From Tubulanus polymorphus (lineage: Eukaryota; Animalia; Nemertea): 64,000 nt of DNA. This document shows, in pieces, positions 2,553 through 55,137 of this stretch. Both the position numbers and the translations under genes were made by a program. The notes beneath the pieces are model-generated. The model ran no database searches, had not been told where the DNA came from, and saw only the letters and a program-made list of their open reading frames with translations. The DNA lies in the NCBI RefSeq assembly GCF_964204645.1, contig NC_134032.1:2690175-2754174 (forward strand), read 5' to 3'. Positions within the stretch are counted from its first letter, which is position 1; the number at the start of each line of letters is the position of its first letter.

Positions 2553-3336
2553 ACTTCTCTAAATCGGGCCCTTCGAGACCAATCCTTTTCCCGCATCAAA
2601 ATAATCGGTAACACCAGACATCCTAGTTGAATTTGTCTTGTCTTCACAAGAAAACTCACAACACCGTAACAGACTTAAAACAAGAGGCTAACTAATAATT
2701 ATTCAACGATACTGGTTGTTCCTTACCCGACTCCACGACGTTATACGTACGTAACGAAACAAACATACCTTCAAAACAAACGACCGGTATTCCGGTATAC
2801 GTATGTTACTATTATAGTCTATACTAACTGAATAAACTTCATCCTACGAGAGTGTTTACCAACTAAGGTATACTTGGAGTAAACAGTTGTAAAATATGTA
2901 TTATTTCCGACGTTAGCTATGCTACAAGTTAGACTGGATAGGATTTGCAATTGACAATCCCATCGCTGCCACCAAAATGTCATAGAATTGCTAATCCTCC
3001 CTCAGTCTCCTGCAACACCACCACGACAGGAAATAATACAAACGAAATTAAACTTTATAATTGGTATATATATTTCTAATTTTGTAATTCATTTCACCGT
3101 ATGATTTCAAAATCGGTTCCGTGGTGATCTGAGATCCTCTCACACACTCGTTCCCATAGCTAGCCACTTGCACAACAACACACACTCTCGTGTGCACGCC
3201 GGGCCTCAATGGGCCCGTCTGACCTTACACACCGGTATATGTGCATTCGACCCAACCTGGATTAATCTCCAATCACAATACCAACAATTAAGGGATTGCC
3301 GGGTTTACACTATTCAAAAGCCAGTATTTCATGACA

Positions 3337-3587
3337 GTCACTACATACTGGGATTGGATGGCATTGTTTTAGTGTTATTCGCCACTGTAGGACACATCCT
3401 CAGTATCGTCGTTCTAAAAGAACAGCACCGCGTGGCTGCAAAAATGTCATCTACGATTCTAACTTTATTATGTCTGGTGATTATGGACACGATCACACTC
3501 GATCACGGTCTTCTCCGTCTAGTTATTCGCTATACAGCTGTTGGTGCAAGTCGTGGCAAGTCCGGATTCGATATTCGTAGAAATCTA
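3337..3587 (+). pseudogene. Partial duplicate (TM1-TM2) of the neighbouring GPCR
   Basis: High nucleotide similarity to 4044-4290 (HYILGL.GIVLV.F.TVG.ILSIVVLK...DTITLDHGLLRLVI); truncated at both ends. Confidence 0.85.
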
Positions 3588-4006
3588 CTGCCAGCTTCTG
3601 GAATCTACTGGGATTTTAGGGATTCGAATTCGGGTGGAATTAGACCATGGATCCAAATGCAATTTCCACGAAAATCTATTCCTCTGTGTGCATGCCAAGT
3701 TTCATAATCAAACAATGAATAGGTTTTGCGCAAACTGGTTATGAAAAACTAGTTTACCCTTTTTAGTATAGATTTTAAATTGACAATATTGGTGTTGGTT
3801 TTCACGTTAAATATTCCTCAGATATCATTCCTACTTACATTAGAACATGTTACATATACACCCATTAGTTTTAACACTTTTCTCGAGTGAGATTTCATTT
3901 ATGCATATTGCACTTTTACACAGTTAATATCGCCGGCAATAAATGCATTTCATCGAATTTCAACACATAACTGATATATTCACAACGAACTGCGCCGAAT
4001 ATTATA

Positions 4007-4987
4007 ATGAACGGTAGCGAAGTAACGAGAACGAATCGAGTAGGTCACTACATACTCGGATTGGGTGGCATTGTTTTAGTGATATTCGGCACTGTAGGCA
4101 ACATCCTCAGTATTGTCGTTCTAAAAAGAACGGCGCCGCGTGGCAGCAAAATGTCATCTACGATTCTAATGTTATGTTGTCTGGCGATTATCGACACGAT
4201 CACACTCGATCACGGTCTTCTTCGTCTAGTTATTCACTATAACGCTTTACTTGCACATCCTGGAACATCAGGATTCGATATTCGTAAACATCTAGGTGCT
4301 ACTGTTAGCGCGTTCACGTGTCCCATCTCCGCGTTTCTGGCCATATTTTCGTTGCACGCGGGCTCTTTGTTAATCGTCATCTTGACGCTTGAAAGATTTT
4401 GTTGTGTCACGTTTCCGTTGAAGGCTTCGACAGTAGCAACTCGCCGAAATTCCGCATTAGGGATGTTGTCCGTTGTGATAGCCACGACCTTTATCGACGG
4501 CCATATTCTGTTTGGTGTCCGGTATATGAAACGCCCCCCGCTAGTCGGCTATCACTGCCAAACAGTCTCCGATTCATATAAATATTTCTACATCAATGTA
4601 TTCGTTTGGATGGACTTAATGTTCGGCGCTCTCTGCCCCTTCTTAATTATCACGAGTATGAACGCCGCCATCATCCGCTGACTCATATCAGCCTCGTCAC
4701 AACGACAGACGATTTCCAAATCAGAAACATCTTCGAAAGCAGAAAATAACACGACCAAAACGTTACTAGCAATTAGCATCGTATTCATCGTTACGACGAT
4801 GCCTGATAAGGCTTTACGTGTTTACAGTGATCGAAACAACGGGGCATTTTATGGCGGATTCGTTGAGGTTTTGGGGCCGCTCTTGCGGCTACTGGAGTAC
4901 ACGAACAGTGCTATCAATTTCGTTCTGTACATGCTGTGCGGTTCGAGATTTAGACGGGAATTTGCAAAAATGTTCGAACAGAAATGA
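4007..4987 (+). pseudogene. Intronless rhodopsin-family GPCR (FMRFamide/peptide-receptor-like) with one in-frame TGA
   Basis: GN in TM1, LAxxD in TM2, ERF in TM3, NSAINFVLY..GSRFR in TM7/helix 8. ORFs 4007-4681 and 4799-4987 share a frame, separated only by TGA at 4679-4681. Confidence 0.85.
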
Positions 4988-11639: not shown

Positions 11640-13900
11640 GTCATATAACCGATGCGGATACCTACGGATAATTTTTTCAACTCGTCGTAATGTCTTCATA
11701 TTTGGTTTATACATTTATCTACCCTAGGTACATCTTCAGCCTACAAACTGGCTCTGTCAGATTAAAGATGGCCGACTGGCAGCCATTGTTGTTCGCCAAA
11801 ATCAGCACTTTTGAAACATTTTCGAAGTTTTCGAGGAAAATTCTGAAGACGCTTTGATCATTTACCTTGATTGTTCATATGTATTTGAATCCCCCAATGG
11901 CATGAGAAAGATTGGGTTGATCGGACTCAAGATGGCTGTCCTGTGACCTTTTTGTGCCCAAAATGTCAAGTTTGGCCTGAATTCTAAATCCTGTAGCTTC
12001 CTAATGGTTTGCAATTTTTAATTGCAATTTGTGATGGGTATTCTTTGGAAAGGGATGTTTTATACCCAAGATAGATATATTTGATCAGGCAATTATGACA
12101 CATTTGGCGGCCATCTTGGTGTCATCAGTACTCATTTGTAGGTGGAAAAAAGTTTTTCCACATTATATTCATACGGTTTAAGCACATTGTTACCACAATC
12201 AAATGGAAAGTTGTAGCTCATGACATGATGTATGATCGTGGTGAGTTTCAAGGGCATTGGTTTTTGTATATGGCCACCAGGGGGCGTTGAACAATGCAAT
12301 AACTTGTATATTATATTCGTACCTATGGTCCTACCACAATCATGGGATACCGGCAACACCAGATGGCGCAACAAAACACTGGGTTACTCGTGATGAAAAT
12401 CAGTTCATTTGCGGTGAAATTTGAACATTATTTTAACCTTCCAATCCCGGAAATTATCAAACGAGTCATCGAATTGATATGAGATTTCCTTTATCTCTCA
12501 GTATATGGTATTGATTTCACTGAATATTGATTTACTAGTCAGATAATTTGAAGTTTATAGAAATGTAGAAGAAATTGAAGCGCGGTAGCCCAGTGCTACT
12601 AGCGATCCTGGCGGATTATCACTGAATCTTCGCTTCCCTCAGTAGCCTTGCCGGTATCCCATTGGAAAATTGTAGCCCATGACATTCTCTATGATCGTGG
12701 TGAGTTTCAAGGTCATTGGTTTTTGCATGTGGCCACCAGGTCGCGGTGAACAATGCCATAACTTAGTATTTCTTTATTATTTTCGTATATATGCATATTT
12801 TGTAACCACAATCAATCGGAAAGTTGTAGCTCATGACATTGTCTATGATTGTGGTAAGTTCCAAGGACATTAATTATTCTATATAGTCACTAGGGGGTAT
12901 TGAATAGTAGAATAACTTAGTATTTCCTTATTATATTGGTACCTAGGCCTATTTTGTTTCCATGACCAATTGCAAAGTTGTAGCTCACGACATGTTCTAT
13001 GAATATGGTGAGTTTCAAGGTCATTGGGCTTCGCATATGGTCACCAGGGGCGTTGAATAGTAGAATAAATTAGTATTCCCATATCATATTAGTAACTAGC
13101 CATATTTTTTACCACAATAAATTGTTAGATTGTTGAGCATCTGAAACCACTTCCCAAGAATTTAGTCCCAGCTGGCTATTTTGCGTCCACTTTTCGTCCG
13201 TTATAGCGTTTGTCCGTCCGTAGACAGAATCCAGTTATTTTGGGATGTTTTGAAGACACTCCAATGGATTGTCCTGATATTTGGTTTATACATGTATCGG
13301 GCATACTCATTACTCCGAAGTCGCATTACTTCGAAATTGCGTTTAATGCCCAAAACGGTCAAGATCTCCTCATTTGAATACCGCGCACTCGCCAGTAAGT
13401 TACGTCGGATCATTGCCGTGCTGGGATATTTTCAAAGCTCGTGTGTCAGATGATTCTGCTTAAGAGAGTAATGATGGACCACGATAAATGGGGGTATTTT
13501 ATACAATGATTTTCAGACGGTTTAAGAGGCTAATTTCTACAGAACGTCCGAAAGTTCACTTCAACCATCTGCTGTGGACCGCGTGGAATAAATGTAAATT
13601 ATTGCTGCATACAAAATGAATGGTTGTATACAGTATGACCGGTCAGAATTCAAAATCAACAACACCTCATTTACATACATTTATTCAACGTGTCCACAAC
13701 ATATTGTCGAAGTGAACTTTCTGACTTTTGGGTAGACATAAGCCTCTTAAACTGTCCGAGAATTGTCCCGGCGGGTTATTGCGTCAACTTTCGTCCGTCC
13801 GTAGACGGTATCCAGTTATTTTGGGAAGTTTTGAAGACACTCCAATGGATTGTCCTGATCTTTGGTTTATACATGTATCGGGGCATACTCATTACTCCGA
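11640..13900 (+). repeat. Cluster of non-autonomous Helitron/Helentron-like (HINE/MINE-type) elements with 154-bp internal tandem units
   Basis: Repeated unit 'aagttgtagctcatgacat...ggtgagtttcaaggtcattgg...tggtcaccagggggcgttgaa'; GTCC microsatellite heads near 13195 and 13790; same family at 33430-33930 and 54140-55137. Confidence 0.65.
13490..13770. mobile_element. MITE-like element; an inverted second copy lies at 15430-15617
   Basis: 'gggggtattttatacaat..tttaagaggct..aaagttcacttc' has a complementary arm at 13705-13765; ~190 bp reverse-complement match at 15430-15617. Confidence 0.55.
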
Positions 13901-28091: not shown

Positions 28092-28188
28092 ATAGCATTT
28101 ATCTAATTTTTCAGCTGTTTTGAAATAATATGTTGTGAATGAGAATTAATATTATATATTGGTTTATCTTCAGATTTTGAAAATTTAA

Positions 28189-30976
28189 GGTATTGGTATA
28201 CTAGAATTTTTGGGAAAATCTTAAATTTTTCAGTTTTTGTATTTCTACATTTATTGCACACTATAAGTGAGTAGAATAACCTCTACAATTTCCATAGTGG
28301 TCAGATTATGGTAAAGGCATGTTTTGGGGGTCAAACTAGACCCCTCCAATCTCAAAGCCCTTAGCAACAGCCCTTGGCAACGTGTTCGAAGTTATTTTTA
28401 GTGGTGTTAAACCGATACAATTAATAACCGTGCAGTGCTGCCATCTAGTTTAGATTCACAATAAACTTTATAACCCAAAACATTGATCTCAAGGTCGTTG
28501 GTTTTCATATTTTGAACGAATATAAAATACATGAAATTTTTCAGAATTTTGACTTCATAGACTTTTATAGCATATTCTGCTTTCGTTCTCGGGAACTCGT
28601 GCTTTATTGGACTTTCAACTGGTAAAATAACTAACTGTGAACACTTACGTAACAATGGGGAAAGGTAGAAACACTCAAAGAAGAAAAAAACAGTTTCTGG
28701 TAATCAATTCAGCCCACCCCCAGCCCCGAAAAAGCCAGTCATTGAGGGTGATGCATTAAAATCAGCCTCAGGACGAAAATTTGGACAACTTCTGAACAAT
28801 TTGACAGCACAGGAGCTACCTGCAGATACAGATAAACTACAGGAAGGCTACTTGCTAATGGATTTATCGATTTTAACTGGGGTATTCAGTGATTTAGTGA
28901 AGTGTCCGGAGTGTGCCGCTTCAGTGACAGCATCTGCGGACCTACCCAAAAAGGCCGGCATGGCACATTGTATAGTATTACAATGTGAAAATTGTGCGTG
29001 GGAACATTCATTTTATACCTCCAAGTTGATTGAAAGAACTGGTAGTGGCACACCTTTCTATGAAGTCAACATTCGAACTGTACATGCCTTCCGCGGCATC
29101 GGACAAGGACACGCGTCCATCGAAAAAATTTTGCCTGTTCGCAAACATGCCTCCGCCAATGAACAAAGCTGCATATACAAATGTGATGTATAGAATTAAT
29201 AAAAGCTATAAAACAGAGGCTGATATAAGCTGTGCTAGGGCAGCTGCTGGTGTTAGGTCCCTGGAAACAGGATTGGCGCAACCGGATGATGAACCTGTAG
29301 AAACGAGTGTTAGCGTCGACGGATCATGGCAAAAGCGGGGACACAGTTCTCATAATGGACTGGTTAGTGTCTTATCTACCAAAAACTTTAAAGTGTTGGA
29401 TGATGATACATTGTCAAATCATTGCAGCAAATGTAAACAAATGGAAAAAAAGAAAGACACTCCAAAATATTTCCGATGGAAAGCGAAACACAATTGTCCA
29501 CTTAATCATAGTGGAACCGCAAATGCCATGGAACCGGTCGGTGCGAAAAAAATATTTAATCGTTCTTTAGATAAGTATTATCTGCTATATACTAGTTATT
29601 TATGAGATGGTGATAGCAGTTCATTCAAAGTTGTGAAAGCTGCTAAAGTTTATGGGAGTAAGGAGATTAAAAAACTAGAGTGTATAGGTCACGTGCAGAA
29701 ACGGATTGGAACGGGCTTACGCGCCTTAGTGAAAAAGCACAAAATAGGTGGCAAAGGCAAACTGACAAAAAAATGTATCGACAAACTGCAAAACTATTAT
29801 GGTATGGCAATTAGAGAGAACTGTGGTAACATAAAAGACATGCAAAATGCAATATGGGCGGGACTATATCACGTTGCTTCTAATGATACACGGCCTCAGC
29901 ATCATAAGTGCCCAAAAGGTGCTGACAGTTGGTGTGGTTTTAATTCAAACAGTGATAAGTTCAGACATAGTTCTGGTTTATCAGATGATATAGTTCTAAT
30001 AGTTAAGCCATTGTATGAACGACTTGCGGAGGAGGACCTATTAAAAAAGTGTTTGCACGGCGGCACTCAAAATTGTAACGAAAATTTCAATGGAGTAGTT
30101 TGGGACTTGTGTCCCAAAAGCGTCCATGCTGGACGATTTACAGTTGAACTAGCTGTGTCCATGGCCATTTGCCAGTTTAATGATGGCTTACATTCGTCCC
30201 TCAAGTTTCTATGAAAGTATGAATATACAACCTGGCCGATTTACCGTTAAGAGTTCTATTGATCGAGATGTTCGGCGTGTTTTAATATCGATGCAACAAG
30301 GCTCAAAGACCATAAAAACCAAAAGAAAAAAGCTGAGAGCTACAAGAAAGGGTTACCAGGATTCAAATGAACAGTAAGAAGGAGAAACCTACCAAAGTGG
30401 TGCATTTTAAGTGAAGAAGGTATAAATTCCTTAAGAATTTCTTAAAAATCGGTGTTTTCTCGGAAACATGATTTTTGGCTGACACACATTAGCAAAAACA
30501 TGATTATGAAAAAAGTATTTGAGGTAGAGTCTTGAAATTTGGAATACTTGTTATTTATACGTATTGCTAGTGCGTGTGCCTTGGAAAAGTTAATATCTAC
30601 ATCAGGCTAGGTTAGGTTCTTCTATGAATATATAATTAGGTCAAAAATTCCTGAGAAAGTAGTTTCAACTTCGAAATTATTTTCTGACAAAATTAATTGA
30701 TGTTAACCCTAGTTGAAGGCACATGCACTAGTCATGAGAGTTATGAATCAAATGCTGAGAGAATTGTGTCAATATATCAATTGGTTTATACTTTAGAGTG
30801 TTTTTGGTAAACCCCTCAAATTGCGCGTAAAAATCCACCTAATTAGCATAAATTAGCATAAATTAAGAAAATTAATTTTTGAATGTGTAACATTTTCTAT
30901 AGAGGTCACACTACCATAGGTATAATATTTGTAACTTGCTATTTCAAAAATTCAGAAATTCTACTATACTTATACC
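28189..30976 (+). mobile_element. Kolobok-type DNA transposon
   Basis: TTAA TSD (28185-28188, 30977-30980); imperfect 21-bp TIR ggtattggtatactagaattt / aaattctactatacttatacc; GG...CC termini. Confidence 0.85.
28655..30410 (+). pseudogene. Kolobok/Mutator-like DDE transposase with frameshifts and stops
   Basis: CPEC..CENC; SVDGSWQKRGHSSHNG; (G)DGDSSSF with TGA at 29603; KLECIGHVQKR; TQNCNENFN. Confidence 0.85.
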
Positions 30977-31961
30977 TTAACTTCAGCGGATATACTAATT
31001 TTAGGATATTCAACATCTGTAATTATTTTTATAATATTTTTCATATTTTCAAAATGTTTTTTATTTTCTTCTAATGTTTTGCCTTCATAAAATTTAAAGT
31101 CAATTGCAGCTGGTCCAATATCACTTTTGAATGCTTCAATTATATCTATTTCTTTTTAAATTATCTAATGATTTTATATAATTTTTAACATCTTCCATGT
31201 ATGGCCTTTTATTGCTTATTTCATTTTTTAATCTTTTATCTTCTGTTTCTTATCATTATCTTTATCAAAATAATCTTCACCTAAAATATCATTATTCATA
31301 TTTCTAATATGACTTTTAGATTTTAAATGTTCTTCATAATATCTTTTGTTGCTGAATGATTGATTACATGTATCACATTAATATATTTCTTTAATTCTTC
31401 CAATTTAGTTTCTAATATATCATCTTTATATTCTAACTTTAATTTATTCGCTAAATGTGTTTTAGTTTGATTATGTTTTGCTTTTTGGGATTCATCTCTA
31501 TTAATTTTACATGTCGGGCAGTAGTACTTATTTGCTTCCATTTTAATATCAAATTTTTTATTAAAATTGATTTTATATTATTCGAAATCTATATCATGAT
31601 GCCTTTTTTCATTCTTACCTTTGTATATGAAATAGAAATCACCAGAACAATCTATGAAATCTATCCGGTAAATATGTTCTGAATTTATATTTATTTCCTT
31701 TTAATCCTTTATATTCTAAGCGAATTATTAATTTATCTCCATATCTATTAGTAACTGTTTCAATATTAGTAATTAAATATTTCTTATGAATTGTTAATTC
31801 ATTTTACTTCTTTAATCTACAGATTTGACATTTGTAGTATCTTTAATTCTATTTAAGAATTCACCGTGTATTTGTTTACTTTCCATTTTAATAACATATT
31901 TTTTTTATTAAAATTGATTTTAGAAGTTTTTCATTTATATATGTTATTCATTTATATGCTA

Positions 31962-32198
<237 letters not shown>

Positions 32199-32211
32199 TA
32201 ATATAGAGTAA

Positions 32212-32760
32212 TTGGGAATGTGTTTGTTCAGGTTAAAGGTGCGTGTTCTTGCACATCATAGTATCCTATTTGTGTTTGGAAGAGTAGATTCCAAGACGCT
32301 AGTCATGGAACTTGTTGCCGATAATAAGTGTGATTTAGCTCATTGCTTGGATAACAATACTTGGGATATGAGCCATTGGGTAGACATTTCATCTCAGTTA
32401 TCTGATGCTCCTAACTACATTCATTCCCATGGCATTCTACACAATGACTTATATGAAGGCAATGTTTTAGTGAGCAGCAGTAGAATATGCAATGTTTTTG
32501 ACTTCGGAAAGGCGACACTTGTTAATACGTCAGGCAGTACTCATTGTCTGAGGATGACAAACAGAGATACCGACTTCATCATCCCCAGATAGCACATGAG
32601 ATTTTAAATGGGGCCCCCAGAGCATTCATTCAGATGTCTTCTCGCTGGGACGGATAAAGATGATTTGCCACTTCCCTCCGAATCCACCAATTGTATTATA
32701 TAAGCCGGGAATGTCGTGGACCCTTACCAGCAAAACGGCCATGCGCTGGGGTGGTTACTG
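32212..32760 (+). pseudogene. Degenerate protein kinase fragment
   Basis: IHSHGILHNDLYEGNVLV (catalytic-loop-like), DFGKA, and SDVFSLG further on in another frame. Confidence 0.65.
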
Positions 32761-33429: not shown

Positions 33430-33930
33430 GACTAGGGGTCCAGGGACACCATGCCCACTTGGGAAGTGGTTCCAAATGCTCAACAATCTAACAATTTCAA
33501 TATTCAACACCCCCTGGTGACCATATACAAAAACCAACGACCTTAAAACTCACCACAATCATAGAACATGTCAGCAGCTACGATTTTGTAATTGATTGTG
33601 ATAACAAAATATGCCTCGTTACCAATTTAATATGGAAATACTAAGTTATTCTACTATTCAACACCCCCTGGTGACCATATTCAAATCCCAATGACCTCGA
33701 AACTCACCACAATCATAGAACATGTCATGAACTACAACTTTGCAATTGATCATGGTAACAAAATATGCCTAGGTACCAATATAATAAGGAAATACTAAGT
33801 TATTCTATTACTCAACGCCCCCTAGTGACCATATAGAACAACTAATGTCCTTAAAACTCGCAAAAATCATAGATGATGTCATGAGCTGCAACTTTCCAAT
33901 TGATTGTGGTAGCAAAATACGCTGAGGTAT
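33430..33930 (-). repeat. Helitron-like element 3' end with three 154-bp units
   Basis: 'cccct(g/a)gtgacc' at 33511, 33665 and 33819 (154-bp spacing); terminus 'actaggggtccag' is the reverse complement of 55124-55137. Confidence 0.75.
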
Positions 33931-33998
33931 CATAGGTTATAGGCGAATATAATAACGCCATTATATAATCCAGTTATTATCCACTTATTATCACTCAT

Positions 33999-34355
33999 TT
34001 ATTTATCAAAAAAATTACTATCATCAAAATATTTAGTTATCTTAGTGATGATTAAATCAACATTTATTTCATTACTAGTTTCATTTGTATATATTTCAAT
34101 TATTATTTTTTTAATATCATCGATGATAAAATCTTCATCTAATTCATAAAATCTTAAAGATTCTCTAATTAAATTAGTAATCTTTTCTACATTTAAAGTT
34201 TCTTTATCTATTGTTGTTTCATACTCAAATGTTGTTTCATTAGAAAATGTAATATTTTTGATATGTGTAATTACATCATTAACGTTAAATTTCATTTCTT
34301 TCTCACGTTTAAAATCAAATCCAAAACATATGCTCGGCCCAACAGTTATATTCAT
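33999..34355 (-). CDS. Hypothetical acidic 118-aa protein of the Polinton-like element
   Basis: Intact ORF 17 nt downstream of the penton-like gene; TAAATG start context. Confidence 0.6.
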   Translation of the reverse strand: MNITVGPSICFGFDFKREKEMKFNVNDVITHIKNITFSNETTFEYETTIDKETLNVEKITNLIRESLRFYELDEDFIIDDIKKIIIEIYTNETSNEINVDLIITKITKYFDDSNFFDK

Positions 34356-34372
34356 TTATATAGTGAAAAAAA

Positions 34373-35134
34373 TTACTCTCTACATCTTATAACTAATTCA
34401 TATATCACAGGAAAGTTATTCAAATCAATTAAATACCCATTATGATTTCTTATTTCTAATTTGAAATTATTAAATTTAGGAATGCAAGGTTTAAAATCAC
34501 ATTCAGCTAAATTATGATTTATTTGAGTTCCAAATTGTTTAACATTTTTTAGCGGTAAAATATTTAGTATACTAGCACTACAAATTGTTTCTTTAGTTGC
34601 TTCGAAAGTTTTTGTAGGATCAATTAAATTGCAATAAATATAAAAGTGTGTAAAAGGTATTATTATATTTGAATTACCATCTACGTTTCCTGTTACGGTA
34701 TCTGGTGCAATTCCTAACAGTTTAGCTATAGGTTTTTTTACCATAAATGCATGTTGACTTTCATCATATACCTTTATTTTAATTTTATTTGTGCTATCAC
34801 TTTTTATAAATCTAATTAAAAATTTATCTTCTCTTCTAATTTTCAACCGTGCTCTTCTATTAATTTCTTGAGCTAATGTTTCTAAATTATATAATCCTTG
34901 TTTTAAAATTATATGAAACCATTTATTTACATTTCCAATATAAATTAAAAAAGTATTATCTTCAATAGTTTTATCCGTTATATTATAAAACGAATTACAT
35001 AAACTTATATTAACTAATTTTAAATCTACACAATTCTTAAATTCTCTATCTAATTGTACTAGTAAATTATGTGATTTATAATTTGTAAGTCTTCTAGAAT
35101 CTACAAATATTCTGTATTCTTTTAATTCCACCAT
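34373..35134 (-). CDS. Penton/minor capsid-like protein (Polinton-like virus type), 253 aa, intact
   Basis: Pattern IFVDSR..L...F.N..L...S..N.FYNIT..G.Y.L..L...IN..LLG...YIYCNL...IL..LP...F.LEIR...G.LIDLN..P...EL resembles single-jelly-roll minor capsid proteins. Confidence 0.65.
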   Translation of the reverse strand: MVELKEYRIFVDSRRLTNYKSHNLLVQLDREFKNCVDLKLVNISLCNSFYNITDKTIEDNTFLIYIGNVNKWFHIILKQGLYNLETLAQEINRRARLKIRREDKFLIRFIKSDSTNKIKIKVYDESQHAFMVKKPIAKLLGIAPDTVTGNVDGNSNIIIPFTHFYIYCNLIDPTKTFEATKETICSASILNILPLKNVKQFGTQINHNLAECDFKPCIPKFNNFKLEIRNHNGYLIDLNNFPVIYELVIRCRE

Positions 35135-35148
35135 TTATTTTACATATT

Positions 35149-35502
35149 TTATTCGAAATCTATTTCATGGTGACCTTATTCATTCTTACCTTTGTATACG
35201 AAATAGAAATCACCAGAACATAATTCTTCTAAATCTTCACTTGATAATCTATGAAATCTATCTGGTAAATATGTTCTGAATTTATGTGTATTTCCTTTTA
35301 ATCCTTCATATTCTAAGTGTCTAACTAATTTATCTCCATATTTGTTAGTAACTGTATCAATATTTGTAATTAGATATTTCTTATGGATTATTAATTCTGT
35401 TAACTATTTGAATTTATAATCTACTGATTTTACATTTGTGATATCTTTTATTCTATCTAGAAATAATTTGTTGTTCTCACTGTGTGTTTGCTTACTCTCC
35501 AT
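35149..35502 (-). pseudogene. Small SSB/OB-fold-like protein (117 codons, 2 in-frame stops)
   Basis: Manual translation MESKQ...FK*LTELIIHKKYLIT..VTNKYGDKLV..L...FRTYLPDRF...FYFVYKGKNE*GHHEIDFE; homolog at 31578-31886. The fold assignment is inference. Confidence 0.55.
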
Positions 35503-35531
35503 TTATAATACATATTTTTATTAAAATTTGA

Positions 35532-38500
35532 TTAACACGTTAGAATTCTTTTCATTATCTCGTTCTCTTTTGTTTCTTCTCTTTTAAATTTTAAGTATTC
35601 ATCTAAATTACAACCAAAAGCAACTGTATGAATTCCATCATCTAAAATATATCTTTTATCATCAAATGGATTCAAACTAACCTTTTCAATTTCTTCAATA
35701 AATATTTCATGATCGTCAGATCTTAAACATCTCATCTTATGTTTTCTAACTTCTTCATTGAATATACAATTGATGTAATCTTTGAAATGAATATTCTTTT
35801 CTACTACACTTTTGGTTATTCCTTTTAACTTTTTAGCTTCATGTTCTTTAGTTTTATATGAATACATTTTAGATCTAATACCGATGAATTCAATCATTTC
35901 TTCACCACCTAATTCATCTTTGAATTTACCGGGAACTTTTTTATTATCATTGCTAAACAATTCATGATCTTTGGGATAATTACTAAAATCAAAATGATGT
36001 TTTAATGTTTTTAAATCATCTGTTATGTTATCAGTTTTTATCTTTAATATGTAACTGTCGGTATCAAAATATAGTATTTCTATATGTTTTTCTCCAAAAA
36101 GTGGTTGTAATACATATATAGTATTTCTATATGTTTTTCTCCAAAAAGTGGTTGTAATACATTATAATAGAATTCATACATTAGTAATTTTGATAATTCT
36201 AAAACTGAAGCGCCAACATAGATTGGTTTATTAAATTTCATTGATGTTCTTCTCATCTTAACTGCAGCTAAATTTTCATCAAATATTCTGTTACCAATGA
36301 ACTTAGGATATGTTTGTAATTGTCTAATTCTTTTACCATTACTAACTAACTCAATATCATTTCTATTTCTAATATTTTCACAAGTCTTACCATAGAATGC
36401 ATTATTCATTAACTTGAAGAAATCTTTCTCGAAATCAGTTTTAGCTTCAGTTCTCTGTTTGGTGTTAAAATCTATATATTTTTCTAACCACTTAGATTGA
36501 CTAAATGAAATATATCTATGTACTTTTTTTAGGATCATTCCTTGTTTTAGATAAAACTTTAACATTCTATAATGTACTACATAATTATATTTATCTTCTT
36601 GAGTTACCATTAACTTTTCTGTATGAATATGATTTTCGGGTTTAATTCTTTTTTGATAATTTGATAATTCTTCATGAGTTACAGTTTTATGTTCGGGACA
36701 GTAAGCTAGATTTCTAGATTTAAATTTAATATGTTCAGGATATTCTAAATCTACAACAAAGAAGTAACCAGTATCTGAATCATCTGCAATATCTAGAATT
36801 CTTTTCTTCCAATCAAATTTATCATTATTTTCATTCTGTAAAACTTCACTTATTTCAAATACTCCATAAGGTTGTGGTTCCATCATTGCCCAACCATACA
36901 AATCATTTGCATCTATATATAATAACTTATATCCAGGGTTATCATTTACATTGAAATATCTATGCCCTAATACACCTGAAACTCCTCCTCTTATAGATTT
37001 TTCAAATAATAGTAATTGATCTATATTTGTTAACAAATCCATTTTTATATCTGTAAATTTTAATCCACAATCCCATGTTAAACCTGGGCTAGAATAACAA
37101 TGACATGGATCAATGTTAAAATATTTTAGGTTTACATCTCTAAACCTTTCGAATATATCGGTTAATTATAATACATCTGATTTTAGATATAAATCTACTA
37201 ATTGTCCATGATTTTCTATTTTGAAATGATTCCAAATATTCAATGTTCTATTATAGACTTCATCTTTAACATATTCATTTCTTAATTCATCATAGAATTG
37301 TTCTTTCAATAATTCAGTAATGTTAAAATCATTATGATTTTTATAGAAAGAATATGGAATTGCGCCTTTATATCTCATTGATTGAAAATCATCATTATTT
37401 GGGTAATGTTGCTTTAATATTTTTAATTCATCATCAACTAATGATTTTGATAAGTTATCTAATGAACTATTTAAAAATCTATATGAATCTATAAATCTTA
37501 GGCAACCAAATTGGAATGATATATAATTCTCAGATGTTTTAGCTAACATTCTAAATTTATAAGTTGGTATTTTATCTTTTGATCTATTTGAATTAAATCT
37601 TTCTATTTCATTATTGATTTCTTCTATTTTATGGCATAACTGTTTGATGAATAAATGTGCATCATATCCTGATAGATTATGAAATATAACTGGTACAAAA
37701 TAAATTTTCTTAGCTTGTAAGTTACAATTCTCATGTGCAGCGCCTCTAAACTTTCCATTCAAATAATCATGGTCTCTTACTTTTTTATCTTTATAATTAA
37801 ATATCTTTTCACAATAATAACATTTATCTGCAAACGCAAATTCTTCTTTATCTTCTTCTGTCATTATAATTTCTATATTTGTATTCAATAATTTACTAAA
37901 TCTTATTTCATATTCAATTAATAAGTCACAAAAATGATTGATAACATTTTCATTTCTATAATCATAATATTCACTTTCAATTAGTTCTGGATAATCAGAT
38001 TTAATATATAACCCGAAAGCTGCAGCTGATTGATGAATCTTTTTAATAGTATTTGTTTTTGGCGGTTCATCTGAAAAATCATTTTCATTAGAATTTAATT
38101 TCTTTCTTTTATAATATATTTCTTTTCTATCTTGATCAGTTAATTCTTTATTTAATGATTCAAAATCTCCATATATAACAAATGGAACTTTATTTTTGTA
38201 ATCATATTTTTTGAATTCTAATATTTTATCCTTTTCATTTGGTAAAACTAATTTACAATAATCACGATTTTCACATAATTGTTTATGATTTAATAATGTA
38301 CTTTCATTACTGAATTTATGTAAACATTTTCTACATAGATATATTTTATTATGGTGATCACTTTCTGTTCTAAAGAATAAATCTATTTGTTTAATCCACA
38401 TATAATGATTCTCATAATATAGTATATCTATAACATCATTTGAATCATAATCTTTTGATAGATATAAAGGTTCTAATGTATAATGTTTTATGTTGTTACC

Positions 38501-39608
38501 TTTTGTATTTGGTAATTTGATTAAATCAAATACATTTATCTTTATATTATTATCTCTTTCTATCTTTGGGATGTTTTTTATTATAACAGGATACTTATCT
38601 ATCTTATAATTATTTTCAAATGGTTTATAATTTGTTAATCTAAAACTATGTGTAATATCTTCTGTTGGATGTAAACAACTTATTATAGCCCATAGAAAAC
38701 ATTTATCATCTTCATTTTGTACATTTATTACAGCATTAGTTTTAAATGGTAATTTGATATAACTTGATCCATTTATACTATCATCTTTATAATATGATAC
38801 ATTATTTTCATCTATTGGTTTCGATTTAGTTATCTTATTATATTTTGTGTTATAAACATGTAAAGTCATAAATATTATCTCATCAAATATTAACCAGACC
38901 CTTCTCTTCTATTTTAGTTTTTACTTCATTATAACATTTATCTAATTTATCATCTATATGTTGTTTAGATATAATATGTTGTGGATGAGAATTTAGATTA
39001 TATATTGGTTTATCTTCAGATTTTATAAATTTAACTTTAGAAGATATACTAATTTTAGGGTATTCAACATCAGTTATTATTTTTATTATTTCTTTCATAT
39101 TTTCTAAATGTTTTTCATTTTCTTCTAATGTTTTTCCTTCATGAAATTTAAACTCGATAGCTGCTGGGCCAATATCACTTTTAAATGCTTCGGTTATCTC
39201 TATATCTTTTTTATTATCTAGTGAATCAATATAATTTCTTACATCTTCCATGTATGGTCTTTTATTGTTTAATTTATTTTTTATGCTTTTAATTGTCTTC
39301 TGTTTCTTATCATTATCTTTATCAAAATAATCTTCACCAAAAATATCATTTTTCTTATTTCTAATATGACTTTTAGATTTTAAATGTTCATTATAATATC
39401 TTTTATCACTGAATGATTGATTACATGTATCACATTTATATGTTTCTTTTTCATTCCTTAATTCATCTAATTTAGTTTCTAATATATCATCTTCATATTC
39501 TAGTTTCAATTTATTCTCTAAATGTGTTTTAGTTTTATTGTGTCTTGATTTTTGGGATTTATCTATATTGATATTACATGTTGGGCAGTAGTACTTATTT
39601 GCTTCCAT
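35532..39608 (-). pseudogene. polB: Protein-primed family B DNA polymerase (Polinton/adintovirus type) with N-terminal zinc fingers and an endonuclease VII-like insert
   Basis: ExoI IYGDFES, ExoII FHNLSGYD, ExoIII LYLKSDV; motif A YIDANDLYGWAM, motif B KLMNNAFYGK, motif C YFDTDS (~36053-36075); C..C..VRDHD..G.FRGAAH..CN. Broken by a frameshift ~38880, TAA at 37166 and a 47-bp duplication at 36070-36163. Confidence 0.93.
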
Positions 39609-39844
39609 TTTAATATCAAATTTTTTTTTTAAATTGATTTTAGAAGTTCAATGATTTATATCATGTATTATTTCAATCACACTTTACTAACACTTTTAAT
39701 GTTTAAAAATCTAACTCATACAAATATAAATATTGAAATAATGTTGTAAATATATCTATATATCTATTCTATAAGAGCTCGTTAATTACTCGTTACTTAT
39801 ATATGTTATTCATTTATATTTTATTCATATATATGAATATTTTA

Positions 39845-40038
39845 AGAGTAATAGGGGTAATAGGCTTTCATATCAAAGGTTGAAGGGGCGAGTGAGTAAA
39901 AAAATGAAAACAATAATAATTTACAGTTGAATTAGGAGTGTGCGCGACTAATTCAACTGTAAATTATTATTATTTTCACTTTTTTACGAGCTCGACCCTT
40001 CGACCTTTGGTATGAAAGCCTATTACCCCTATTACTCT
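39845..40038. repeat. 194-bp fold-back palindrome (~91-bp arms, 12-nt loop)
   Basis: agagtaataggggtaataggctttcata...ttacagttgaattag [gagtgtgcgcga] ctaattcaactgtaa...tatgaaagcctattacccctattactct. Confidence 0.95.
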
Positions 40039-43981: not shown

Positions 43982-46900
43982 ATGGCATCGAGAAAAATTC
44001 AACCCCGTCGTCGTAAGGTCCGTTGGCCTTGTAGTGTTTGCAGCCTGGAATGTAAAGATCATTCGATATATTGTCCCTTCTGTGAAATGTGGAGCCATTC
44101 AAGCTGGGAGAAAATATCAGCAAATATATTGGAAAGTCTTGGTGAACTGCCTGGAAATTATAGCTGCAACTCGTGCCGCCACGAAGAAAACGGTTCATTA
44201 ACTTATGGCCACGCACTAAAACGATTGGAAGAGTCTGCGATGAAAGGAATAAAAGGTCTAAAGGATGAAGCAAAAATGCTTACGTTACTTTTCCCTGACC
44301 AAGAGTCGAAAATGCAACTACCCGTAGTTAAAGAGTCAGAACTTCAAGTCGATGGGTACAGCAAACACCTGCTAGATAATGATCGGACCATCGAATAAGA
44401 TTCCAATTCGAGTTCGAGGAAATGGAAATTGTCTATTTAATTCAGTTTCCGTCGCACTTTCAGGAACAGAAGAATTGGCGACGGAACTGAGAGTACGAAC
44501 TTGTATGGAAATGGTATTGAATTCAACATTCTATAAGAACCATGGTAATTATGCTGACTTCCTAAAGTGTTCTGAATTCGACACGGCATGTCTTGAAGCT
44601 GCCAAGAACCACTCATATTCTTCGATATTTACAGTTCAGGCATTGGCAACCGTTTTACAACGGCCAATAATGTCCGTGTACCCAGCAGTCAACGGAATTT
44701 TTTATCATTGCGCTAGAATACTTAATTGGAATTTTAATCCAAGAGACAAAGGTATCGCCAAGAAAAGAAAACGACAAAATCAACAAGAAATCTATTTAAT
44801 GTGGACTAAGTCGAATACAGATGAAAGGCCAAGAACAGATGAAACTTGGTTACCAAACCATTTCGTTCCACTATTGGAAAAAGAAAAGGCAATGAAGGAA
44901 CGAAACATAGGGCCACCACCCGAGCAGAAACGAGTTGAACAACGTAAGAAAAGGAATGTCCATTTTACTCCAACCAAAAGAGAAAGTGAAATCGACGAAA
45001 TGGCCGAAAAGCGGAGCCGAAATATCAGTCCAGTCCGACGACACACATCAACACCAGAAATCAGCAACCAGTTTGAAAAGAAAACCATTCCAGTCGAAGA
45101 GTTCAACCGAAGTGAATTTTTGACATCATCTCCGATTCTTGATGAATCGTGGGATTTATCACCGAAATCAAGTCTTGAGGAAAAGGATGAATTTCAGGAA
45201 ACCGATGGACTGAATGCAAGTCGAAAAGTAAGAGAAATCAGTATGTGTGTGGATGTCGAGGGAACGAATGAATTTTCAGTAATGTCAGAAGAAGTTATAG
45301 AAGATACGTCGATCAATTACCAACGTCTTCAGAACGGTCGTTTCCTTGATAGCATGGATATACTTGGTATTTGTGAAAACACAAAAAACACACCAAAATT
45401 AACTCAAATCCCATGTGGCGTTAAAGAAAATCTGTTTTACGTGCTCGACAATAGCCAGAATGTCGATAGGAGAAAGAAACAATATGAAAGTAATTTTACA
45501 GATGATTGCGGCGCTTGGGTATCGAGCTCGTCATCCACAAAGAAAGTCCTCCTTTATCCCGAAGGTGATCGCTACAAAGTGACAGAACTAAAAAACAGTC
45601 TATATTGTACTAAAATCAAGGGTGAATGGTTACCATTGGAGCCGCAGCCAAATCGCGATGATATCGTTGATCTTCGTCGTTTCTACGCAACATTAAAACG
45701 AAAAAACGACTATAAGAAGCGCATTTCTTGGATCGAAAACGGACCAGCTAAATTCAACCAGACAATTTCTGTTGTTGAATACATCGGTGGATTCCCTACC
45801 AATAGAAGCGCTCATGGCCACGCAAAGCATTCAACAAATGAATACATCCGCACGGCACCAGATAGAATCGAAACGATATGTAGAGAGGTTGAGAATAATA
45901 ACCCAAGCACAGTATATCGGCAAATGGCTCAGGCGGATGACTCGATCGATGCTCCACGTAATTTGAAGCAAGTCCTAAATGCGAAATATAAAGTCGACCG
46001 CGAGAAACGAGATGCCCAGACCGCAACAAAATCGAACAGAAAAAATACAGCGGACGATATGCAAACAGTCATGAATATGATGGGAGAAAACAAATTCATA
46101 AATCGTACAACTAGACGGCAAACCACCAAATGTCATCCTGTACACCGATGAACAATTGCACGATGTTCGCAAGTTTTGTATTGAGGCCGAGCATCCTGAA
46201 GTTTTAGGTGTTGACCGAACTTTCAATCTCCGTCCGTGTTATCTAACACTTACAGTGCATAAAAATATCAACTTGTTACGCTGTAAAACTAATGAACCTC
46301 CAATTATGCTGGGCCCTATGTACCTACACTGGGATGGATTATGTATTACTTACCGTTTTTTTTCCCCATCTTAGAGCGGCACTTGAAGGCGATATAACTA
46401 CTCAGGTCGGATTTTCTGAGCTTTTAGTCGGTTCCGACGAAGAAACAGCGCTACTGAAAGCCATCAAACAAAGTTTTCCGAACGCCCAACAGGTATTATG
46501 TCATCGACATTTGGAAGAAAACGTCCGGAGACACCTTCAACACAAGGTCGGGGCGAATGATAAAATAAAACACAATGTGATTAAATCTATATTTGGAAAA
46601 AACGGTATTTTTGATAGCGAAAGTGAATTTGATTTCGAGAACATGGTAATGAATATAAGAGAGAAGATCACGCGTGTAGTTCCAAATTTTCTATCTTATT
46701 TTGAGAAACTCGTTCCAAAACTTAAAAAGTATGTATTTGAACCAAAATTGAGAAACCATTGGATTCCTACGAATTGGACAAATAACAATTGCGAGTCATT
46801 GAATCACGTTATTAAGATGGCGATAAACTGGAAAATTCAGAAAGTGCCCGACTTAATTACAAAGTTCACGAGATCGTACGACTTCAGTATATTGACATGA

Positions 46901-54139: not shown

Positions 54140-55137
54140 TCGGAGTCATGTAGCTTCCTACTGGTTTGCCATTTTTCATTGAAATTTGGGTGGCTATTCT
54201 ATGGATAGGGTTCTGTAGCTGAGACAGGTATTTTTGATCAGCCAATTATCACGCAATTGGCGGCCATTTTGTTGTCATCAGTACTTATGAGCTTCAACTT
54301 TGTAATTGATTGTGGTAACCAAATATGCTTAGGTATCAACATAATGTGGTTTTTTCCACCTACGCATAAGTACTGATGATACCATAATGGCCGCCAATTG
54401 CGTGATAATTGGCTGATCAAAAATACTACAAAGTTGAAGCTCATGACATGTTCTATGATTTTGGTGAGTTCAAAGTCTTTGGTTTTTGGTATATGGCCAC
54501 CAGGGTGTTTGGAATAATACATTAACTTAGAATTTCAATATTATATTAATATCTAAGCGTTTTTTGTCACCACAATCAATTGTTAAGTGGTAGCTCATGA
54601 CATGTTCTAGGTGGAGGTAGAGGTGAGTTACAAGGTCATTGGGATTTGCATATGGTCACCAGGGGGCGTTGAATAGTAGAATAACTTAAGGCGCTTTTAC
54701 GAAACTGAATCTTTGTAAATCGATTTAAGTTTCACGTTTATGGCACGCGGTTTAGTGAATCCGATTTGGTAAATCAACTCGTTTATGGAAACGATTAAGT
54801 AAATTGATTTATTAAATCGACTCACTTGCTCGGCCTGCAAGTTAGTGGCGATTAGTGGCGTCCTCTTCGACTGCAGGCTAAAGACATCTATTAGCTAATC
54901 CGAATCAGATTCAATTTCATAAAAGCGCCTTTAGTATTTCCATATTATATTGGTACTGAGGCATGTATTGTTATCACAATCAATTGCAAAATTGTAGCTG
55001 CTGACATGTTCTATGATTGTGGTGAGTTTCACGATCATTGGTTTTAGTATATGGTCACCAGGGGAATTGAATATTGAAATGGTGGTTGGATTGTTGAAAG
55101 CCTTTCCAAGTAGGCATGGTGTATCTGGACCCCTAGT
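54140..55137 (+). repeat. Helitron-like element with 154-bp units and CTAG 3' end
   Basis: Same unit as at 11.6-13.1 kb; ends 'ctggacccctag'. Confidence 0.7.
54689..54930. mobile_element. PIF/Harbinger (Tourist-like) MITE with TTA TSD
   Basis: TIR aggcgctttta.gaaa.tgaatct / agattcaatttcataaaagcgcct; the empty site in other units reads 'aacTTAgtatttcc'. Confidence 0.85.

Follow-up and report, generated by a model that had tools for sequence, protein, structure and literature searches.

A near-perfect palindrome of 190 bp is the outermost part of a multicopy element in the genome of the nemertean Tubulanus polymorphus. The copy described here lies in a 64,000-nt stretch of contig NC_134032.1 (hereafter the window), and it is likely the terminal ~6 kb of a left-truncated Polinton (Maverick), because it stops inside a gene that continues in relatives. 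By analogy with the telomeres of Streptomyces, we propose, with a probability of about 0.55, that the hairpin acts as a fold-back replication origin for terminal-protein priming at each end of the element.

Anatomy of the terminal hairpin

A reading of this DNA from its sequence alone had described a fold-back with arms of ~91 bp and a 12-nt loop ~240 bp from the start of polB, and the structure is borne out. The arms (39845-39935 and 39948-40038) are paired at 83 of 91 positions around a loop at 39936-39947, and the pPolB start (39608) lies ~240 bp inward. Folded as single-stranded DNA, the region reaches -94.1 kcal/mol, compared with a mean of -25.9 for shuffled sequence (z = -17.9; 0 of 100 shuffles equal). 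Its stem scan score is 67, against a maximum of 13 in 200 shuffles of the surrounding 1.5 kb, and it is the strongest stem of the window, a (TA)n run aside. The outermost two pairs of the 91-bp arms are likely chance matches to the flank; the palindrome of the element itself has 81 of 89 positions paired. The features at this end are:

39847..40036 (no strand): terminal palindrome, 190 bp (inner arm 39847-39935, loop 39936-39947, outer arm 39948-40036)
39936..39947 (+ strand): GAG-N6-CGA loop, carried by the strand that has its 3' end at the tip; the same cap occurs in four ends of another Polinton family
39805..39846 (no strand): AT-rich subterminal segment, adjoining the inner arm and common to copy 1
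39495..40036 (no strand): probable terminal inverted repeat (TIR) of ~540 bp, whose other end is missing in the window copy

Within the window, the 20-mer that opens the arm is found at the two arms only. An exact search of viral contigs for the hairpin arm gave no match, and Rfam returned four matches to generic or miRNA-type hairpins, all far below the gathering score.

The hairpin is the tip of a multicopy element

Raw whole-genome reads of the same species from an independent study (run X6; 150-nt reads, ~12% of the run read) place the tip precisely. Out of 11,919 aligned reads, 2074 leave the hairpin at 40036 and 474 at 40037. Read agreement behind these two positions is only 0.33-0.35, so the flanks are mixed. 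The ~19% of reads that run one base further are close to the rate that we would expect from chance matches, which puts the tip at 40036, with the sequence 5'-AGTAAT on the - strand. Depth falls from 3064 to 41 and then to 9 beyond the outer arm. At the inner arm there is no step: reads at 80% likeness give a depth of 2922 immediately ahead of the arm and of 2810 within it. None of the six loose-end positions listed for X6 (the smallest with 314 reads) lies at the inner arm, which bounds free inner ends at fewer than 314 reads.

Median depth in the interior of the element is 537, compared with 11-21 in the right flank, giving an estimated 26-49 copies if the right flank is single-copy. Six runs were considered; four of them were aligned to the window, and two were aligned again to the hairpin. 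Run X1 (share 0.07) contains scattered short pieces only and contributes to none of the results. Contig depths in X2 and X3 are sums over unitigs and were not taken as copy numbers, and X2 may be the source of the window itself. The tip, at a depth of 3,000-4,100, exceeds twice the depth at 39450 (~930), and shortened or diverged copies must therefore be common. The segment 39650-39805 is missing from many copies, and read joints from 39645 to 39805 (253 reads) and from 39653 to 39812 (304 reads) connect the region upstream of polB to the subterminal segment. Further inward, 39495 is where 314 reads leave (agreement 0.91) and where depth goes up, as would be expected if a TIR of ~540 bp had its inner edge at this position.

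A second, rearranged copy of the element precedes the hairpin-bearing copy (copy 2) in the window:

28092..32212 (- strand): copy 1, a rearranged fragment with an arm stub, (TA)n, ORF X and the 5' part of polB; 76-87% identical to copy 2

The sequence-only reading had claimed that copy 1 carries the start of the same arm. The subterminal motif is indeed shared (40 of 44 positions identical to copy 2), and AGAGTAAT occurs in copy 1 at 32195-32202 and at 32205-32212. The claim holds no further than that: copy 1 shares no more than 8-9 letters with the arm, lying behind a (TA)n run of 230 bp, and lacks a hairpin. In copy 1 (31574-32212) ORF X lies between the terminal region and polB, unlike in copy 2, and a contig joint from 35496 to 39607 (run X2) indicates that the ORF X and polB-start regions adjoin in another copy too. 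The polB of copy 1 is split by a transposon (28191-30976) that encodes a Mutator-like transposase (PF20700, in three ORFs) and has inverted ends GG..CC with TTAA on both sides; its ends resemble those of Kolobok elements.

Other repeats lie elsewhere in the window. A dispersed family with a 154-bp internal tandem unit occurs at 12150-13124, 33494-33955 and 54290-55137, one copy standing at the left break of the Polinton. A second near-perfect palindrome (541-660; 120 bp with 58-bp arms) is probably a MITE, and at 44376-46900 an ORF of 591 aa that includes an OTU domain precedes an ORF for a MULE transposase.

The element is probably a truncated Polinton

The island 34000-40036 has a GC content of 22-26% and encodes, from the tip inward:

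35532..39608 (- strand): broken pPolB gene with C2H2 fingers, terminal-protein domain, vOTU, an EndoVII/HNH-like insert, and exonuclease and polymerase motifs
35176..35502 (- strand): ORF X, small and interrupted; it precedes the penton gene in relatives too (L005, L007)
34373..35134 (- strand): minor capsid (penton) protein, 253 aa; DUF5901 at E 7e-4, below cutoff
33999..34355 (- strand): ORF Y, 118 aa; syntenic in L004, L006 and L007
33930..33998 (- strand): first ~20 codons of the next Polinton gene, similar to an ORF at the same place in L007

Three lesions disrupt the pPolB gene: its frame shifts near 38883-38908, a stop codon interrupts it at ~37166, and 47 bp are duplicated in tandem (36069-36166). 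Its four pieces are collinear with an intact 1365-aa database protein (P0151), with identities of 64-84%. We modelled an N-terminal 285-residue stretch of P0151 (71-row alignment, pLDDT 79). The model matches the little-finger/PAD domain of Pol IV (4ir1; Z 8.2, rmsd 2.6, 95 aligned residues), and the part that follows matches viral OTU proteases (3phu; Z 7.2). The fold was thus computed on a relative, and the broken copy in the window was judged by its motifs and its identity to that relative. Among viral proteins, the best match of the P0151 N-terminus is an adintovirus protein (E 2e-13), and a sequence search of solved structures gave zinc finger matches only. The consulted sections of PMC11071308 describe the same TP-vOTU layout for polinton polymerases, using the same PDB entry.

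The penton assignment draws on a structural model (pLDDT 59), for which the top Foldseek match is the mavirus penton (6g41, E 8.6e-9). An alignment search with the penton found four metagenome loci and no viral contig. The order X-penton-Y recurs in metagenome loci, and in L007 it goes on to an rve integrase, an A32 ATPase and a capsid-like ORF. We take this last ORF to be the major capsid protein; it has matches of 32-47% among Polinton loci and no Pfam match. The window lacks genes for the rve integrase, A32 ATPase and major capsid, since the copy breaks off at ~33935, inside the next gene and beside a 154-bp tandem repeat, while the first two are present in the syntenic L007.

Polintons have TIRs of 100-1500 bp, a target duplication of 5-8 bp, and tips that begin with 5'-AG followed by short tandem repeats. 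The window copy has a tip of this type (AGTAAT), as do two related elements (AGTAGT in G001:C9 and L032), and one related family has ACACAC. Together with a pPolB that carries terminal-protein and vOTU domains and with the penton gene, this is what we would expect of a Polinton. We rejected the alternative that the island is a minimal 6-kb element resembling bidnaviruses: the gene in which the copy breaks off extends further in relatives, and 676 reads cross the ends of the sequence to which the reads were aligned, where depth at the right end is ~11.

The genes of the element start in a TAAATG or TAAAATG context (39608, 35502, 35134, 34355, 33998, 31540 and 31888; - strand), and several of these starts are preceded by a shared AT-rich stretch. 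The start context resembles the late promoter motif of poxviruses.

Palindromic tips in related elements

Alignment searches with polB returned 16 loci from viruses and 77 from prokaryote MAGs. The latter (L021-L097) encode Polinton-type pPolB, and the ones that we examined seem to be DNA of a eukaryotic host or of a virus that was binned with the prokaryotes. Of 97 loci collected in all, 40 have at least 1.2 kb upstream of polB and were scored: a strong stem was found upstream in 6 of the 40, compared with one in the coding-region control (7 of 41 versus 1 of 41 with the window included). Two of the six, L032 and L021, have the stem at an element boundary. A first, strict palindrome scan of 76 of the 97 loci, which missed bulged hairpins, had found four loci; a short pattern search over 132 loci found nothing.

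Two complete and distantly related Polintons, which share one bin of a sample from another animal, have palindromes at both tips. The first (G001:C9) is 15,137 bp long, with AGTAGT..ACTACT tips, a perfect 6-bp target duplication (TAGGAA), a 221-bp TIR and 174-bp palindromes. Its pPolB comes from another clade (PF03175) and is 23% identical to the middle piece of the window gene, compared with 42% for the second element. That element (L021, on G001:C67) is 19,408 bp long, with a 226-bp TIR, 159-bp palindromes and a weak target duplication (TTATT) inside a microsatellite; two further single ends of its family carry hairpins of 114 and 118 bp. In L032, a 129-bp AGTAGT..ACTACT hairpin sits at the boundary between host and element, with DNA devoid of ORFs on one side and an intact polB at a distance of 150 bp on the other, and is followed by TAAAATA, as in the window. 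Palindromic tips recur in at least three pPolB families besides that of the window, and the hairpins vary widely in length (114-190 bp, the window included).

Not every element shows such a palindrome. Both tips of G001:C9 and C67 have similar hairpins, but we saw no long tip palindrome in six other pPolB elements with TIRs (G011:C8, G007, G009, G010, L017 and L018), in several of which the TIR reaches the contig end, so that the tip may be unassembled. Tip palindromes therefore occur in two of the eight elements for which both TIRs were seen, and their absence from the six means that they are not required for Polinton replication in general.

Palindromes in L002 (4657-4840, 184 bp) and L091 (1163-1419, 257 bp) were not counted as support, as they are intergenic, upstream of polB and away from the tips. 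In the L002 palindrome the AGTAGT/ACTACT motifs face outward, and it could mark a form with joined ends. AT-rich palindromes in L007 (9082-9359) were set aside as low-complexity sequence. Two observations concern the contigs of the complete elements. In L111 (169-464; G001:C9), a tip of the ACACAC family lies 8 bp from the tip of the complete AGTAGT-family Polinton, perhaps reflecting a preference for insertion beside other Polinton ends. L110 (8098-17602; G001:C67) contains a 4.76-kb internal tandem duplication (99.6%) that spans the integrase and the 3' part of polB.

Orientation, loop and complementarity of the arms

In the assembled ends the palindrome has a single orientation. Comparing one end of G001:C9 with the other gives 1 difference in 174 positions, where 15 would be seen if one end were flipped; for C67 the figure is 1 in 159. 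The flop form was found neither in the seven assembled ends (a small sample) nor in the 380 reads that are anchored in the subterminal segment and leave at 39903; the latter show a shorter stem with a similar loop and unchanged orientation. Another 429 reads, with no anchor outside the palindrome, leave at the loop (39940) into a different inner sequence and may represent a class of longer or flipped palindrome. There are also 13 opposite-strand joints (39898/39980), which at a read length of 150 nt look the same as palindrome variants. Shorter variants with a symmetric deletion of the centre are present as well (joint from 39903 to 39980, 120 reads).

A GAG-N5/6-CGA loop lies on the 3'-tip strand in all five assembled ends that have the cap, namely the window and four of four ends of the C67 family, and it could be closed by tandem sheared G.A pairs. 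The motif was picked out post hoc; a scan of 1.0 Mb of loci gave seven distinct matches with a stem of at least 6 bp (the four C67-family ends, L103 and two six-bp background matches). It is absent from the complete element of G001:C9 and from L032. The L103 match (G001:C75) has a GAG-N8-CGA loop on a hairpin of ~58 bp, immediately next to a (TAA)n run; another family may end there. In the window, folding favours the 3'-tip strand (-79.7) over its complement (-73.5); in the C67 family the gap is below 1 kcal/mol.

The arms stay complementary while their sequence changes, so that structure outlasts sequence. Three ends of the C67 family have 30-36 of 45 outer-arm letters in common and unrelated inner stems, but the outer arm of each is 87-93% paired with its own inner arm. 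In all three ends of one family, a bulge of a single base occurs near position 20, always on the same arm. Reads show the same within the species of the window: among the 40 of 152 differences listed, 22 fall inside the hairpin and 16 of these are mirrored on the partner arm, although the mirrored differences are unphased and reads placed on the wrong arm can mimic part of them. Three of the remaining six are at positions that are unpaired in the window copy, and three have no listed partner. In the outer part of the inner arm, however, the majority of reads must have started within the unique subterminal segment.

Possible roles of the palindrome

In the fold-back origin that we favour, the palindrome would be present at both ends in the window family and would fold in vivo. 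Terminal-protein priming would start at the AGT tip. The 3' tip of the displaced strand could then pair with the inner arm, rebuilding a duplex origin locally, with no part played by the far end of the genome. Copying straight through the hairpin from the protein primer, the polymerase would preserve its orientation and leave a normal linear tip for the rve integrase. The single orientation of the assembled ends and the linear tip fit this scheme, since protein-primed copying through the hairpin would keep both, and the terminal-protein fold is kept in the close relative P0151. We infer all of these steps from integrated copies and by analogy.

It is also conceivable, if unlikely, that the hairpin primes itself: the 3' tip would fold back and be extended by the polymerase, and the closed end would be nicked with its orientation kept, possibly by the EndoVII/HNH- or Vsr-like insert of pPolB. 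Folding back would place a paired 3'-OH on the template, and a model of this kind is proposed for protist virophages and PLVs in the consulted text of 10.64898/2026.07.28.741278. An EndoVII-like motif is present in the polymerases of the window (PF02945, E 0.003, below cutoff), P0151, L032 and L021, all Pfam matches being near or below cutoff. However, the terminal-protein and vOTU domains are kept, none of the seven assembled ends is of the flop form, and the insert also occurs in L018 and L003, where no tip palindrome was seen. Such inserts are read as intein or homing-nuclease invasions in the relevant part of PMC11071308.

We give similarly little credence to the palindrome being kept for something other than priming, such as protection of the end, its repair (the inner arm serving as template once a frayed 3' end has folded back) or recognition of the folded end by the integrase or packaging ATPase. 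Complementarity does last despite full turnover of the inner stem, and copying from arm to arm would give that result with no selection on individual pairs; the centre-deleted variants point the same way. The virophage preprint (10.64898/2026.07.28.741278), in the portion consulted, links palindromes to particular rve integrases and allows for an accidental origin. Against this, pure homogenisation would erase asymmetry, yet the bulge stays on one arm in three of three ends and the loop cap is common to families.

A bolder, doubtful proposal combines priming by protein and by hairpin in dual-mode ends that span lineages of animal Polintons. The terminal protein would prime one round and the G.A-capped 3' hairpin would prime the other, being opened, with orientation kept, by the nuclease fused to the polymerase. 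If true, such a replicon would join adenovirus-type to parvovirus-type end replication, and would offer a living model of the step from protein-primed to hairpin-ended DNA viruses.

It is very improbable that the hairpin is a palindromic MITE in its own right, that two termini meet head to head in it, or that it arose in assembly. MITE-like palindromes of 120-170 bp exist (541-660 in the window; 6198-6365 in L021) and the tip is far deeper than position 39450, but there is no target duplication around the hairpin and its flanks do not repeat, only the outer end is free, the tip motif lies outside and not at the centre, the loop and both arms are each covered by more than 1,300 reads from the independent study, and complete relatives have the same anatomy. 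The sequence-only reading was thus right to assign the hairpin to the pPolB element, given also the continuity of the inner arm with the subterminal segment and the read joints to the polB upstream region. Its suggestion of a junction between two termini does not survive the AG-type tip at the outer end and the mixed flanks beyond.

Comparison with known systems

The element resembles Polintons/Mavericks of the adintovirus-like kind (PMC11071308 and 10.1101/2023.08.22.554363, as far as consulted) in its TP-vOTU-EXO-PALM polymerase, penton, gene order, AG-type tip and many copies, and its complete relatives also have TIRs and a 5-6-bp duplication. It differs in that the outer 114-190 bp of the TIR are a near-perfect palindrome. 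In the portions consulted, long tip palindromes in animal pPolB Polintons are not reported in 10.1101/2023.08.22.554363, PMC11296320, PMC11071308, 10.1101/2022.07.28.501842, PMC12910113 or PMC6431247, although older Polinton or Repbase reports may mention them. The text consulted of the Jeong preprint has no occurrence of 'palindrom' or 'hairpin', and that of the Krupovic preprint has 'hairpin' in a reference only. In the accessible part of 10.64898/2026.10.13.758929, a 'palindromic repeat' is marked in a figure legend only and long tip palindromes are not reported. Polinton replication has been modelled from sequence alone as a long-range panhandle between the TIRs (summarised in the part consulted of 10.64898/2026.07.28.741278).

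That preprint of July 2026, in the same part, describes palindromes at the TIR extremities of endogenous virophages of Halocafeteria seosinensis (subtypes 1, 2, 5 and 6) and of PLV subtype 4. Like those described here, they stand beside the target duplication, and a role of hairpins in replication was proposed. By contrast, the hairpins described here measure 114-190 bp and belong to animal-type Polintons that keep pPolB and the terminal protein. In the main text consulted, tip palindromes are found mostly in virophages and PLVs that lack pPolB; its figures or supplements may list cases with pPolB. Our results extend the protist observation to pPolB elements, where palindromes are said to be uncommon. 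Palindromic Polinton tips are easily mis-annotated as MITEs and may drop out of short-read assemblies.

The hairpin telomeres of parvoviruses and poxviruses exist in flip and flop forms. They share with the tips studied here an imperfect terminal palindrome able to form a long hairpin. In our case, no flop form was seen, the window fragment has no Rep/NS1, the terminal protein is kept, and the integrated form is open with a sharp AG tip. A closed hybrid end of the parvovirus or poxvirus kind, as the sequence-only reading had suggested, is disfavoured, because the palindromes of relatives stand at both tips of ordinary integrated Polintons, in one orientation and with the terminal-protein domain kept.

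That suggestion started from the premise that a terminal protein and a terminal hairpin exclude each other, whereas both coexist in the telomeres of Streptomyces. In the typical Streptomyces telomere (Tpg/Tap; PMC4513846, in the part consulted), the 3' strand bears terminal palindromes whose loops are held shut by sheared G:A pairs, a terminal protein is attached to the 5' end, and priming by that protein takes place on a folded 3' end; the Polinton tips would resemble it in these respects. Streptomyces telomeres differ in being bacterial, with several short palindromes, an internal origin with end patching, and unrelated proteins, so they would serve as the closest working analogy only. Tip palindromes beside a kept terminal protein suggest a second, local route to the origin, one that would offer a short and defined DNA substrate.
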